Positions 3,149-48,378 of a stretch of 64,000 bases of DNA are shown piece by piece (the stretch's first letter is position 1; each line of letters begins with the position of its first letter). The DNA comes from a virus: IMG/VR virus record IMGVR_UViG_3300042295_000443, positions 1-64,000 of that record; one strand, written 5' to 3'. A model generated the notes under the pieces. That model did not search any database, was not told the DNA's origin, and saw only the letters and a list, made by a program, of their open reading frames with translations. A program made the position numbers and the translations under genes.

Positions 3149-6100
3149 TATCTTTGAGATGTTTGATTCTTACTATTAACAATTTTTACTACCATATTTA
3201 TATCTCCAGAAATATCTTTTTTAAGATTTAAGAAATTTAAATAATGTCTAAACTTTTTTCTTTGTGTCTGTGATTTATTATAATCAAGATTAAGTGGATT
3301 TAAAATTTTAGTATAGCCATTAGATGAAGTTTCCCATATGTTTTGAGAATCATAGTTTCCATTTAATATAGTTGAACCAGGAATAACTGGACCTGTTGGA
3401 GGATAATCTGATCCTATTGGAAACTCTCCTCTATCTTTAGTAATGTCCCAGAACTGATTAAACCTGTATTTATTTTCTTCTTTAGAGAATAATATGTCAA
3501 AAGAATTCTGATTAGCATTTAATTTAGGATAGTCTAAACTTAAAGTAACATTATTTTTTGGAAATAAATTAAGATTTAAATATCCAGATGCTTGTTCTGA
3601 ATTAAATATAATAGCATTATCAAAATTAAAATCTAAAACATGATGTTGATCTACACAATTAATTTTAGATATTCTATAACACTCTAATATATATTCAATA
3701 CTTTTTATTGTAGTAACTGTTTGTCCAGTTATTATTGGGAACTCTATTTCAAATGGGTAGTTTTGATCATAAAAATTACAAAAACTATTACATGTATCAT
3801 TATGTTTCCATATTGCATTATTTTTAGTTGTTATAAATTTTCCTTTATTTGGAATAATTAAATCTGGATGCCAGTCATGAAAAGAAATCCAGAAATCATT
3901 TTTAGGGTCAAAACTTATTGTCCATGATGCATCTTCAAATAATAAAGAATTTCCTAATAAATATGTACCAGGTAAAATAGCTCCAGGAGAACCATTAGGT
4001 TGTGTTGGATTTTGTATTTGAAAATAGTCACCAGTACCTTTTCTATTTAAAGGTACATATATAACACTCTGTCCTCCAGGTACTTTCCATTTATCTAATA
4101 ATTTATAATCTTTTTTAGAAAAGAATATAATTGAGTTTTCATTATCATATAATGTTTGACATCCAATACCTGCTACAGGATTATCTAAATAAGGATATGT
4201 AGGAAAATCTATTGTAAGGTTATATGGTAAAAATAAATTAAACCACCACTTTAAACCAGATTGAGAAATTTCTTTTAATCCTCCAGAATAAGAAAATATT
4301 TTTCCTTGATTTTGTGAAATATAAAATAAACCACCAGGTGTAGACAATACAGATAATCTATTTTGAGATGATCCATATTCATATGGTACATCTGCATTAG
4401 TTACTGATTGTCCTGGTTGAGAAAATAAACCACCATCTCCAATAGTAATTTTTGTAGCAAGATCTGTTTGAAGAACATCTACACCTTGATACATTAATGG
4501 ACTTGCATTTTTAAATGTAATAAACAAACCACTTTTATTAATAGACTTTACTCCACTAATTTGTGATTTAAATTCATTATAATTATTAGGTAAGTACACA
4601 AACCAAGAATCTTTAAAAGATTCATTTTGTTGAGGTAATGAATAATATAATCTATCTGGATAATATGTATAACATAATTGTGCAACAAAAGGATCATAGT
4701 TTCTGCTTTGTAAATTACCTGCAGAAAAATATTGACTAAAAGCTTTTGATATACTTAATGAATAATCATATCTATAATCATTACCTCTTGCAATTATTTG
4801 AGGATCCATATTAAACATTGCATTTAAGTCAGTATAAGAATATGGATCATAAAACTTTTCTGCTTCTGTTATTCCTGCTATTCTAAAATCTACAAGAACA
4901 TCTGACTCTACAAAGAAATCTCTTACAGAAGATACTGCAAGATAAAAGAATGATTCTTTAACTCTGAATACTCCTGGATATCCTAATGCTGATAAACTAT
5001 CATCAGCATACTGATATCTTTTATTATCTAAATTATAAAAATCTGTAGGAACATTTCCTGTGCCTGGAGTAAAAGTACTAAAGTTTGGAGCAAAATCAGT
5101 TGAGTCATATGCTTTTGAATTTACCCAAAATCTTGGCTCAGGAACCATCTGATGTAAAAGATAATTATATTCAAATCCATCTGGTTGACCAAATAGCCAA
5201 TCATAGAAAAAGAACATAGAATTTTTTTCTGTATATCTATTTACAAAAGTATCACCACCAAAAAAAGTTGGTGTGAATTGAATAAGATTTACAAAATATT
5301 GTACACCAGGATCTGTAGCACAATTATAAGGACCTACAGGAGCTACAGTATAATTTGATAATTTTTGTTCACAAGGAGTTATAGCAATTTGTTTTATAGA
5401 TTGTAATTGACCATATTGATTTCTTAATCTAATTTTTAAAGCAGCATAGTAACTTGCAATTGATAAGCCAAAAGGAACACTAGGATTATCAAAATTAGGA
5501 GAACCAACTGTTGACCAATTCCATCCATTATTGACAGCTTGATTATTTTCAAAATATCCTAATGTAACTAATGACTGATCAACATATTGACCAGCAGCAT
5601 TTGTTATATAAGCAGGACCAATATTAATTCCATTAGGAAAAAGAGGATTAACATAATCTCCTGTTTTAGTTCTTACAACAACTGTATCAGATCTTTTAAG
5701 ATTATTTATACTATAGGCTGTAGACTGTGTTGTAGGAAAACCTAATGGATCTGGAATAATTGCATTATATTGTTGAACTTCTTGAATATTATCTCTAATA
5801 TAAAAACTATCTTCTATCTTATATCTTTGTACAGAACCAAATACATTTGGTTTTATCATATCATCATAGAAACCATGACCAATTTGTTGTAATGCATATT
5901 GATCATATCTTATAGAAGCATATAGAACTCTTAAAGCAAGATCAAAACCTTCTGAAAAATAATATAAAAATTTTGAAATACCACCTAATATATCAAATGC
6001 TGTTCCTATAGATCCTGGAATATAATCATTCCAAGTAAGTTCTTTATCTAATGTAGGTGATGTATAAGTTCCTATATTTGCTGATGCATTATTAAATGTT

Positions 6101-45841: not shown

Positions 45842-46138
45842 ATGAAAGATTTCATTCACACAGGTTGGTGGGGACCTACATTAACTACCACTGAAGATCC
45901 TGAATTAAAAGTTATTGAAAGAGATAATGGTCATTCTTGGACTATGAACTTTTATGTTGGTCATCATTTAATTGATTGCATAAATATGGAATGGTGCCGT
46001 GGTACTAAACTAGACAAAGATGTTCTTAGACTTCCTGTGTATAGTGATGAAGGTATCTACTTAGGTAGTCTTGCTAAAAGATTAGAAGATGCAATTAATG
46101 TTATGCATCCAGAACCTATGTTTCATACAGGGGAGTAA
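45842..46138 (+). CDS. Hypothetical early protein
   Basis: ORF track; A/T-rich leader. Confidence 0.6.
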   Translation: MKDFIHTGWWGPTLTTTEDPELKVIERDNGHSWTMNFYVGHHLIDCINMEWCRGTKLDKDVLRLPVYSDEGIYLGSLAKRLEDAINVMHPEPMFHTGE

Positions 46139-46147
46139 TCCCCTTTT
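46129..46147 (+). terminator. Terminator GGGGA-GTAA-TCCCC-TTTT
   Basis: Identical to the 44446 hairpin. Confidence 0.7.
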
Positions 46148-46154
46148 ATTTAGT

Positions 46155-47065
46155 ATTGTTGCCTTTTCTTTAACCAGGCAAGTATCCAGTAAGTTGCTGG
46201 CGTGGGACTGTCCAGTATAGTTACAAGACAGTAGGGTTTGGTCTATTTCCCTTAAAGACCATTAAGTACACAATGTTGTTACCCTCAGAGTTTAGATACT
46301 CATGGTGTGTGCGTTAAACCTATTATAACGGTTACTAAAACAACAGGTCAGCTCTCGTGACCAAAGGATAAACCAGTAATGGTATAAAGTGATATGTTGG
46401 TAACATATTGCGCAGGAGTAATCCTGTCTACAGAAGAGTATTGTAACTACCTACATTTTGGTGTGCTTGTGGCCTAACGGTTGATGCATAGAGATGTAGA
46501 CTTTCTAACAGGTAGGAAGTTGAGACAGAAATGTCAATAGAAAGTGCAATAGGTAACAATAGTACATCTCGCCAAGATGGAAGTTGTTATTAGTGAGATG
46601 TTCTTTATGCTACTAGAAATAGTGTGTATTTACATCAAACAGTGAGTAAGCTTGGCCGCTTAAAGCAATGTGAAGTTATAACTAAGGTACTCAAAAGGTA
46701 TTATGTTATATAAAGTTGGAACTACTTCACATTATTTCCTGAACCGCATTTAAACTAAAAACTTAAAAGCAAAGAATGTTCTAGCACTTATTAGTGAAAA
46801 TGCTCTTATCCTACTGCAATATGTAGGTACAGAAGACCCGCAAGGTTTATGTAAAGGGACTGATTAATATCTTAACTAGCAGTAGACATACTGTGTATCC
46901 CGTAAGGAAGTTGGTATGAAAGGAAACTTATTGCACTAATATGTAAAAGTATGATGATACTATAAATCATTGAGCATGTTGTTTACTTATAGAAATATAA
47001 GTGTGTATGAGGAGAAGAAATTTTCCAAAAATAGCAACATGAAAGGTCAATACTCATCCTTTCAA
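46155..47065 (+). ncRNA. Giant structured non-coding RNA (GOLLD/ROOL size class)
   Basis: About 900 nt without an ORF in the track. Many stems with GNRA loops and G-U pairs on the + strand. Long-range helices 46363-46369/47056-47062 and 46436-46443/47048-47055. Confidence 0.7.
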
Positions 47066-47238
47066 TAGTAATGCACCATTTCTACTTCACAAGGGTAGAC
47101 AGTTGTAATGTATGAACGCAACACTACTAGATTTTATCACTAGAAAGATGTTACATAGGGTTTTAATTAAAGAAGACTGATAATCTTTTTTATAACCTGC
47201 CGGAAACTTACATTATAACTGAGTGCAGAGTGATATTA
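47063..47238 (+). ncRNA. Twister-like self-cleaving ribozyme 1 (P1 type, long P5 insert)
   Basis: UAA-UGC-A-CC ... P4 UCUAC/GUAGA with loop UUCACAAGG ... 13-bp P5 ... GCA-GA-GUGA. Pseudoknots UCAC/GUGA and CC/GG. Confidence 0.65.
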
Positions 47239-47264
47239 AATAGTAACCAACTAAACTATAATAT

Positions 47265-47417
47265 ATGATTTTTCAATTGATTGCTCAAATTATTAAAGAT
47301 GCTGATAAAGTATCAAACAAGAAATTAGATAAAGCTGCTTATGCAGATTATCTCAATACTCTTTCTCTAGATGATCTACTATTCCTTAAGGATAGTTATA
47401 GTTCAGAGTTAGTATAG
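47265..47417 (+). CDS. 50-aa protein between the two ribozymes
   Basis: MIFQLIAQIIKDADKVSNKKLDKAAYADYLNTLSLDDLLFLKDSYSSELV; below ORF cutoff; A-rich leader. Confidence 0.55.
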   Translation: MIFQLIAQIIKDADKVSNKKLDKAAYADYLNTLSLDDLLFLKDSYSSELV

Positions 47418-47450
47418 TACTTATTCCTGCAAGATTAATTTCTTGTGGGA

Positions 47451-47577
47451 TTAGTAATACACCACTTCTCATTCCCAAGGTGAGACAGTTGTAATAGTAA
47501 GAGAGCAGGTTGCTTAGTCACACCTGCGGTAAATAATACTAAATCTTACACATTACAACTGAGTACAGAGGGATAAC
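47451..47577 (+). ncRNA. Twister-like ribozyme 2 (P2 mismatched, possibly attenuated)
   Basis: UAA-UAC-A-CC ... P4 UCUCA/UGAGA with loop UUCCCAAGG ... P5 CAGUUGUAAU/AUUACAACUG ... ACA-GA-GGGA. Pseudoknot UCCC/GGGA covaries with copy 1. Confidence 0.55.
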
Positions 47578-47693
47578 AAGGGTCATAACCTTGGGGCATA
47601 ACTAAGAGCTAGTAAGAAGACATAGAGTTCATTTTATTATGAAAGATACAACTCTTATTAGAACAACTCTTAGTTAATGCTTTATAAATATGT

Positions 47694-47933
47694 ATGAAAT
47701 ATATACAATTTATAATTGAAAGTAATTCTAATAAGAAATTAGATGCTTTCACTAAAGAATGTATTAATGCCATCAGAAGATCTGGTGCTGTTAAAGCTGG
47801 TCCAATACCTTTTAAAGGTAAAAGATTATTTTATTGTTACAGTCCTAATGGAAAGACTATTGATAGACTTATGTCATTAAAATGTCCTAAAGGTGTGTTA
47901 GTAACAATAAATTCTTTGGAAAATCCTCAATAA
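47694..47933 (+). CDS. Ribosomal protein S10 (uS10/NusE) homologue lacking the ribosome-binding loop
   Basis: SGAVKAGPIPF-KG-KRL...SPNGKTIDRLMSLKCPKGVLVTI aligns with S10 GA.V.GPIPL...(K/L)RL....PT.KTVDALM.L.L..GV.V.I. Confidence 0.75.
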   Translation: MKYIQFIIESNSNKKLDAFTKECINAIRRSGAVKAGPIPFKGKRLFYCYSPNGKTIDRLMSLKCPKGVLVTINSLENPQ

Positions 47934-48005
47934 AAGGGGTTAGTTAAAGCTGAAATAACTACAAAGCTTTGTTTTTAACTTAAAATTAAACTTAAAAATA
48001 TACTT

Positions 48006-48267: not shown

Positions 48268-48378
48268 ATGGAAAAGATTGAAGTAACAATGCAAGAGATT
48301 TGGAAGGCTACTAAGCCTATTATCTATAAGAATAAGAAGAAATATTCTAGAAAAGATAAGCACAAAACTAGCAGGTGA
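48268..48378 (+). CDS. 36-aa basic peptide with KNKKKYSRKDKHK tail
   Basis: Below ORF cutoff; starts 4 nt after the previous stop; the stop codon lies inside hairpin AGCAGG-tgaaagt-CCTGCT. Confidence 0.55.
   Translation: MEKIEVTMQEIWKATKPIIYKNKKKYSRKDKHKTSR

Follow-up and report, generated by a model that had tools for sequence, protein, structure and literature searches.

A ribozyme of the twister class probably makes the 3′ end of a giant phage RNA. We analysed 64,000 nt (positions 1-64,000; hereafter the window) of the 89-kb IMG/VR virus record IMGVR_UViG_3300042295_000443, a stretch with genes for a portal protein and a large terminase. On the + strand of the window, an RNA related to GOLLD (RF02032; Weinberg et al. 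2009) is directly followed by an RNA element, copy 1 (47064-47237), which has the layout of a twister ribozyme, belongs to a family with covarying helices, and has counterparts in the same place after other GOLLD RNAs. The reading that we regard as likely is that copy 1 is a twister-class ribozyme which is co-transcribed with the GOLLD-like RNA and cuts at 47069/47070, making the GOLLD 3′ end. A preliminary description of the window had proposed ribozyme-made 3′ maturation of the giant RNA, and all of the comparative evidence that we obtained supports this proposal, with cleavage itself predicted from the sequence.

A GOLLD-like RNA followed by a predicted cut site

The GOLLD-like RNA of the window matches the Rfam GOLLD model over the full length of the model (Table 1). 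Its score of 88 bits is below the gathering score of 150, as befits a divergent but significant relative. The GOLLD region is free of open reading frames (ORFs) over ~750-900 nt, and its relatives align over ~900 nt, with greater differences in their 5′ parts, so that the 5′ domain is variable and the 3′ domain conserved. The last RF02032 helix is a terminal hairpin that is conserved in the relatives. As the preliminary description had placed it, the predicted cut lies 7 nt after this hairpin, which ends at 47062.

Comparison with other phages was made through IMG/VR loci fetched for this purpose, which are identified here by L-numbers. A search with nhmmer, using the GOLLD of the window against loci that had been found through the ribozyme, identified full-length relatives in L240, L072, L087 and L275, and a family twister lies within a few bases 3′ of each. 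A sample of GOLLDs free of this ascertainment bias came from a scan of IMG/VR for a 22-base pattern of the 5′ domain of GOLLD, which gave 10 evaluable cases including the window. In seven of these (the window, L354, L357, L358, L072, L240 and L275) the cut site is located 6-12 nt after the terminal hairpin. Two others, L353 and L355, have a U-tract instead of the twister (GGUUUUUUU, or CAACCUUUUUAUU), and this U-run after the hairpin looks like a terminator in the ribozyme's place. L359 has neither. The presence of a cut site in seven cases and of a U-tract at the same spot in two points to selection for an RNA end at this position. In four of the sampled GOLLDs, a family twister is present on the 5′ side too, where it ends ~35 nt ahead of the GOLLD 5′ module; no such twister precedes the GOLLD of the window.

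No tRNA gene was found in the window, in agreement with the earlier view that this giant RNA lacks tRNA-linked processing, and no terminator-like site was found on the + strand between the hairpin at 46129-46144 and position 48305. The GOLLD 3′ end is thus most simply explained by processing. Because copy 1 follows the GOLLD-like RNA at a spacing of 7 nt with no terminator-like site, we infer that the two are transcribed together.

The GOLLD region has on its 5′ side a ~100-nt module (window 46160-46262; ...UAUCCAGUAAGUUGCUGGCG...GGUCUAUUUCCCUUAAAGACC). It recurs alone in L113, L020, L220, L241 and L269, directly 5′ of a family twister. Since it stands alone elsewhere, it appears to be a small, separable RNA module.

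Twister layout of copy 1

Letter-by-letter checking of copy 1 bore out every coordinate of the twister layout given in the preliminary description. From 5′ to 3′, the order of parts is U47069/A47070-A, UGCAC, C, AUU, UCUAC, UUCACAAGG, GUAGA, the 13-bp P5, A, GUGCA, GA, GUG and AUAUU, and a plain minimum free energy (MFE) fold of copy 1 recovered P1, P2, P4 and P5. The P4 helix UCUAC/GUAGA was confirmed at 47081-85/47095-99 and forms in the MFE fold. The 13-bp P5 (47100-47112/47209-47221) was equally correct, and the insert that it carries measures 96 nt, where about 95 nt had been given. Loop 4 does depart from the canonical length by one nucleotide, with 9 nt vs 8 nt (UCCCAAGC) in the consensus of the Rfam type-P1 twister model, RF03160. 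In the type-P1 layout of copy 1, P4 carries the loop UUCNCAAGG. The pairing that had been proposed between loop 4 and the bases after the conserved GA holds as T1, formed by CAC (47088-90) and GUG (47230-32), which covaries in the family. In contrast, P2 had been described as UGC/GCA and is really a 5-bp helix of UGCAC (47072-76) and GUGCA (47223-27). The positions of all parts are listed in Table 1.

Table 1. Features of the GOLLD-like RNA and of the two twister-like copies, in window coordinates.
Feature	Position	Strand	Remarks
Whole GOLLD-like RNA	from about 46160-46330 to 47062	+	
GOLLD-like conserved 3′ domain	46668-47060	+	RF02032 model positions 1-416 of 416; 88 bits; E 1.7e-22
GOLLD terminal hairpin, AAAGG-UCAAUACUCAU-CCUUU	47042-47062	+	last RF02032 helix; conserved in relatives
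Linker, CAAUAGU	47063-47069	+	between terminal hairpin and predicted cut; ends in U(-1)
P1 5′ strand, AAUA	47064-47067	+	G47068 faces A47233 as a mismatch
Predicted cleavage site, U47069/A47070, then A47071	47069-47071	+	aligns with UAA of the Rfam twister-P1 consensus
P2 5′ strand, UGCAC	47072-47076	+	partner strand 47223-47227
C47077	47077	+	can pair with G47093 of loop 4 (T2)
P4, UCUAC/GUAGA	47081-47085 with 47095-47099	+	five pairs; closes loop 4
Loop 4, UUCACAAGG	47086-47094	+	9 nt; CAC 47088-90 is the T1 strand; AAG at 47091-93
P5, 13 bp	47100-47112 with 47209-47221	+	from MFE fold
Distal P5 insert, 96 nt	47113-47208	+	carried by P5
P2 3′ strand, GUGCA	47223-47227	+	partner strand 47072-47076
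GA	47228-47229	+	G47228 aligns with G of GAGGG in the twister consensus; candidate catalytic guanine
T1 3′ strand, GUG	47230-47232	+	pairs with CAC 47088-47090
P1 3′ strand, (A)UAUU	47233-47237	+	from family P1 register and fold
Copy 2	47455-47577	+	U(-1) is 47455; P2 UACAC 47458-62 vs GUACA 47563-67

Covariation in a phage RNA family

Scanning IMG/VR with patterns built on four different anchors gave hundreds of loci, from which 146 5′ cores were parsed, 136 of them belonging to complete copies. Covariation was evaluated in an alignment of 68 sequences that left out copy 1 and included copy 2, the second copy in the window. In this alignment 95.9% of cells were paired, compared with 86.2 ± 0.4% in shuffles (0/500 reached 95.9%) and 30-50% in controls in which the partner strand was slid. 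Changes on both sides were present at 17 pairs, and the family helices contain G.U pairs.

The individual helices show how this pairing is maintained. P2 is UGCAC/GUGCA in 114 copies, UGUAC/GUACA in 8, UGCGU/ACGCA in 6, UGCAU/AUGCA in 4 and UGUGU/ACACA in 1, and three of its five pairs change on both sides in the alignment. P4 has more than 20 Watson-Crick versions among the parsed copies, with both-side changes in 5/5 pairs and 99.7% of cells paired. T1 is CCC/GGG in 118 copies and CAC/GUG in six with no discordant copy, so that its middle pair is C-G or A-U, and 97% of its cells in the alignment are paired. P5 changes on both sides at 8 of 10 pairs, and its covariation persists where P5 was not the search anchor (CAGAUGUACA/UGUACAUCUG, CACUUGUAAC/GUUACAAGUG, CAGUCCUGUA/UACAGGGCUG). 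P1 covaries only weakly, yet is clearly present in its register: with position -2 paired to the base after the T1 triplet, as in canonical twisters, the mean run was 2.37 pairs vs 1.23 ± 0.09 in controls (~12 standard deviations). A fourth T1 pair (U-R) was considered and dropped, as the base that follows GGG opens P1 by pairing with position -2.

The presumptive active site is conserved as well. UAAU is found at the cleavage site in nearly all genuine copies, and one copy has C at -1, according to a search that was anchored on loop 4 and P5 and left the site free. In a search anchored on the 5′ half, the candidate catalytic G was kept in all but ~3 of some 110 copies. A covariance model made from the 68 relatives scored copy 1, which was outside the seed, at 82.6 bits (E 9e-23), and its matches in the 64-kb window were copies 1 and 2 only. 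These results indicate that P2, P4, P5 and T1 are conserved as RNA helices of a genuine large phage RNA family that is not catalogued in Rfam.

A core sequence that is highly conserved across many phages, with P5 inserts that seem shuffled between cores, might also be expected of a repeat acting at the DNA level (a recombination site, a promoter or the end of a mobile element), or the likeness to a ribozyme might be due to chance. We find either explanation scarcely credible. Compensatory changes hold RNA pairing in five helices, the G.U pairs would be A.C on the other strand, and the element is co-oriented with its flanking genes; the E-value of 9e-23 for a copy outside the seed, together with the covariation, contradicts a DNA repeat.

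A blastn search of 46000-48000 against a phage GenBank collection gave no match. Scanning genome contigs with the 5′ core gave 19 matches, with ~50 chance matches expected by estimate; 14 (one in an archaeon included) were chance and five were real. These five members, in metagenome-assembled genomes (MAGs), are assigned to Chitinophagaceae, Sediminibacterium, Phycisphaerales, Alphaproteobacteria and Saccharibacteria. Some are on short contigs with doubtful binning, and we make no firm host claim.

Likeness to twister ribozymes

Real type-P1 twisters were taken from Clostridia genomes and aligned to RF03160 for comparison with copy 1. The RF03160 consensus is ccuuUAAcgCcGCC[P3]GcCGGUCCCAAGCCCGggUAAAgGcgGAGGGaagg, and two Clostridia twisters read UAAUGCA-GCC-[P3]-G-ACG-GUCACAAGCC-CGU-...-UGCA-GAGUG-P1. 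Copy 1 reads UAAUGCAC-C-AUU-UCUAC-UUCACAAGG-GUAGA-[P5]-A-GUGCA-GAGUG-P1, with GUGCAGAGUG as its 3′ part. Its outer shell, UAAUGCA...UCACAAG...UGCAGAGUG, is identical in letters to that of the Clostridia twisters.

Copy 1 and type-P1 twisters have in common the order P1-UAA-P2-...-P4-...-P2′-GA-T1′-P1′ and a U-A cleavage step that is followed by A and lies directly 5′ of P2 (U47069-A47070-A47071). The loop 4 core is UCCCAAG in type P1 and UCACAAG in copy 1, where AAG is kept at 47091-93. In both, T1 joins three loop-4 bases to the three bases after GA, and P1 abuts it. The P2 letters UGCA/UGCA and a CAC/GUG T1 occur in Clostridia twisters, as in copy 1. The family differs from twisters in its helices and in T2. 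P3, which is found in 78% of twisters, is absent. Twisters do not need P1 for cleavage and have P5 as an optional stem in 1% of cases (Roth et al. 2014, as reviewed in PMC6154101), whereas P5 is obligatory in this family (18-195 nt, median 86) and has a sequence-conserved base. P2 has 5 bp, unlike that of the type-P1 twister, and the T2 bases are C-C after P2 and G-G at the end of loop 4, compared with G-C and G-C in twisters.

The family model was also run with filters off on 5 kb of Clostridia DNA. Its best two matches were the two true twisters, in the same register, with scores of only 8.8 and 8.7 bits. Together, the alignments suggest that copy 1 works like a twister, as a type-P1 variant without P3, in which a long P5 is obligatory and T2 is changed, and that it would cleave at the U-A step.

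T2, one of the defining features of a twister, is ambiguous in its pairing. The preliminary description had CC/GG replacing the usual GC/GC pseudoknot. The CC/GG pairing is indeed compatible with 68/68 sequences, but a rival pairing covaries better, so that the replacement is only one possible reading. C47077 can pair with G47093, the two being C-G without variation in 68/68. The second pair, C47076 with G47094, is C-G in 62 sequences, U.G in five and U-A in one. One both-side change supports CC/GG, compared with six, all clean C-G to U-A double changes, for the alternative in which C47076 extends P2 by pairing with G47223, at the 5′ side of the 3′ strand of P2. P2 may accordingly be longer by one pair, with T2 reduced to the invariant C47077-G47093, or the T2 and P2-extension pairings may alternate or form a triple.

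Proposed mechanism

We propose that the GOLLD-like RNA and the ribozyme would be transcribed as one RNA, in which P2, P4 and P5 would form a three-way junction. Loop 4 would dock through T1 and at least one T2 pair (C47077-G47093), and docking would put G47228 and A47070 at the scissile phosphate. Self-cutting between U47069 and A47070 would then release the GOLLD RNA with a 7-nt tail and a 2′,3′-cyclic phosphate end. The downstream RNA, comprising the ribozyme body and a 50-codon ORF, would begin with a 5′-hydroxyl.

Genomic context of the family

Ten of the 136 complete copies are contained in an ORF of at least 40 aa, and the rest are intergenic. Within 2.5 kb of the copies, the same-strand share of long-ORF bases is 80%. 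The median distance from the end of the upstream ORF to the copy is 218 nt, and an ORF starts no more than 60 nt downstream, often at 30-60 nt, in 44/127 copies. These intergenic, co-oriented positions before genes suggest that the family is a general means of cutting transcripts between upstream non-coding modules and the genes that follow. Across phages, the GOLLD 3′ end would be one recurrent use of such a cutting point between RNA modules and genes.

tRNA-linked processing was considered as a general context of the family and rejected, as aragorn gave one same-strand tRNA within 300 nt of the 146 copies. In L002, a family twister is followed at a distance of 5 nt by a tRNA-like gene (3230-3311, - strand; Rfam tRNA, 47 bits), whose anticodon-loop region contains an insertion of 13 nt; this gene is not called by aragorn.

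Distal P5 arms recur unchanged on cores that differ in P4. The distal arm of copy 1 (47113-47208) is shared only with L072, and that of copy 2 (47496-47551) is also found on the GOLLD-adjacent twisters of L240 and L358. Three further observations were made in the fetched loci. An expanded subtype has a conserved additional domain between the 5′ strand of P4 and loop 4 (GUGGAUAUAAAGACUUCUUAG...CUAAGAUGUGAAACCAC..CUGAUUAAG...CUUAAUCAG), with 17 instances (L076, L084, L107, L095, L109, L047, L056, L001, L004 and others). Tandem family twisters, separated by a few bases to ~100 nt, are present in L049, L069, L088, L061, L072 and L104. A conserved hairpin motif, CAAGGGUUGCAACCUUGUGAGAGUAC, was found at 37 sites (L106, L048, L079, L083, L089, L072, L240 and others), 33 of which have a family twister 0-370 nt downstream. 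The motif may act as a promoter or form a hairpin at the start of the transcript, and it does not occur in the window.

Cleavage and alternative explanations

Several observations, on the element itself as well as on its placement and on RNA data, weigh against a ribozyme that makes the GOLLD 3′ end. P1 of copy 1 consists of 4 bp of A-U beside a G.A mismatch. The canonical GC/GC T2 is absent, and one invariant C-G pair is confidently assignable in its place. In a few family copies A replaces the candidate catalytic G, so not all copies need be active. The Rfam twister models (P1, P3 and P5 types), which the preliminary description had named as a check, gave no match to copy 1, to copy 2 or to short members of the family, either at the gathering threshold (67.2 bits for RF03160) or at E up to 10 in searches of 6 kb, 581 nt and 151 nt. 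The genome of the phage itself, 8 related loci and two MAGs with family members were likewise without an Rfam twister match. Weak Rfam matches to Flavi_ISFV_CRE, mir-130 and snoRNAs were discarded as chance.

Missing Rfam scores and a changed T2 might be expected of a structured RNA that has a twister-like fold without cleaving, either as a protein-binding or transcription-control element or as a scaffold for the hypervariable P5 arm. The base of P5 is nearly fixed, with CAGUUGUAAU in about 60% of copies, which is unusual conservation, and the distal arm that it carries is hypervariable (18-195 nt; 96 clusters among ~120 inserts), which a plain ribozyme does not explain. However, the most conserved letters of the family are those of the twister active site (UAA, loop-4 AAG, GA and the T1 strand) in alignment with real twisters, and T1 covaries. 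The Rfam models miss the family because P3 is absent (~21 model positions), the P5 arm is taken as an insertion of 18-195 nt and T2 is changed. We therefore consider a non-cleaving element quite improbable. As the Rfam models fail to report this large twister lineage, which lacks P3, always has P5 and differs in T2, counts of twisters in phage metagenomes are probably too low.

Near-identical parts of the stretch were found in 24 lake and freshwater metatranscriptomes, at 17-35% of sampled words and as assembled contigs only, and contig cover was compared for four of the 24. A 741-nt contig of depth 142 covers ~46316-47057 and ends inside the terminal hairpin, ~12 nt short of the predicted cut, whereas in a second study a contig ends at 47006. 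Contig cover is close to nil over 47086-47450. This pattern fits a cut near 47069 without showing it. The ends of assembled contigs are not RNA ends, and we therefore did not count the contig pattern as evidence for the cut.

Most family copies sit away from GOLLD, in other intergenic places. This raises the alternative that the element cleaves, but that its selected job is to provide the 5′-OH end of a downstream small-ORF mRNA, which its compact pseudoknot would insulate or stabilise. The GOLLD end would then come from other means, such as exonucleolytic trimming as far as the hairpin or another nuclease, and adjacency to GOLLD would be a by-product of modular phage leaders. The frequent ORF starts within 60 nt downstream and the distant upstream ORF ends are in keeping with such a role, as is the ORF at 47265-47417, which begins 27 nt after the end of copy 1. 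The abundant GOLLD contig, moreover, stops near 47057 and not at 47069. On the other hand, a cut site kept 6-12 nt after the hairpin in 7/10 GOLLDs, with a U-tract exactly there in two, suggests that an end at this position is selected, and the contig stop carries the limit given above. As an account of copy 1 we consider it unlikely; since one cut makes both ends, the 5′-end and 3′-end roles are not mutually exclusive.

A second copy in the window

Copy 2 scores 83.6 bits with model R1, but it was in the seed. Its palindromic P2 has undergone a G-to-A change on both strands, resulting in two adjacent A.C mismatches, and P2 is not formed in its MFE fold. Copy 2 is the only genuine copy with a broken P2 in the 68-row alignment, the other mismatched row being due to a mis-parsed 3′ end, and P2 is intact in the orthologues of copy 2 in L096 and L009. 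This suggests that copy 2 is not equivalent to copy 1, and that it may be impaired, inactivated or pH-sensitive. With copy 2 probably weakened or inactive, excision of the 50-codon ORF as one piece by the two copies becomes less likely. A PHROGs search with the ORFs on either side of copy 2 (50 and 79 aa) gave no match. A metatranscriptome contig of 156 nt (depth 82) at 47497-47646 contains the distal P5 arm of copy 2 and 70 nt past the ribozyme; going by contig data, this stretch may accumulate as RNA.

Comparison with known systems

If copy 1 cuts as predicted, a natural substrate for a phage twister could be named in the GOLLD 3′ end. The exact end predicted (U47069, with a cyclic phosphate) would be of use for structural and functional work. 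GOLLD RNA forms a 14-mer cage by cryo-electron microscopy (bioRxiv 10.1101/2024.12.08.627333), although what it does and how it matures are unknown. Twisters of bacteria and phages, like hammerheads, are found clustered near phage genes, and the biological role of these twisters has been called undetermined (PMC6765202, PMC10085705). The recurrent placement of a twister after GOLLD joins these two problems, and we found no link between GOLLD and twisters in the literature searched, where the one paper that names both does not connect them.

A wider reading can be offered tentatively. In lake phages of this group, one Rfam-invisible twister family could punctuate an 'RNA-first' early region, freeing each non-coding module (GOLLD, the ~100-nt 'UAUCCAGUAAG' module and others) at its 3′ and sometimes its 5′ side, and so replace the tRNA/RNase P punctuation around other GOLLDs. 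Were this the case, the cyclic-phosphate end may matter for the assembly or stability of the GOLLD cage, and the hypervariable P5 arms may be payloads on a nuclease-resistant 5′-OH pseudoknot.

The RNA of the window resembles described GOLLDs, which are phage-encoded, ~800 nt or more in length and variable in their 5′ domain. Described GOLLDs are often near tRNA islands, whereas the GOLLD of the window has a ribozyme at its 3′ end and no tRNA gene. Ribozymes of the hammerhead and twister types have been suggested to process bacterial polycistronic RNAs (PMC6765202). In that processing, as in tRNA punctuation by RNase P/Z, a structured RNA sets the ends of units post-transcriptionally, and the same would apply here. 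For bacterial and phage twisters the literature leaves the role undetermined, whereas in the present case the GOLLD 3′ end offers a specific and recurrent candidate substrate.

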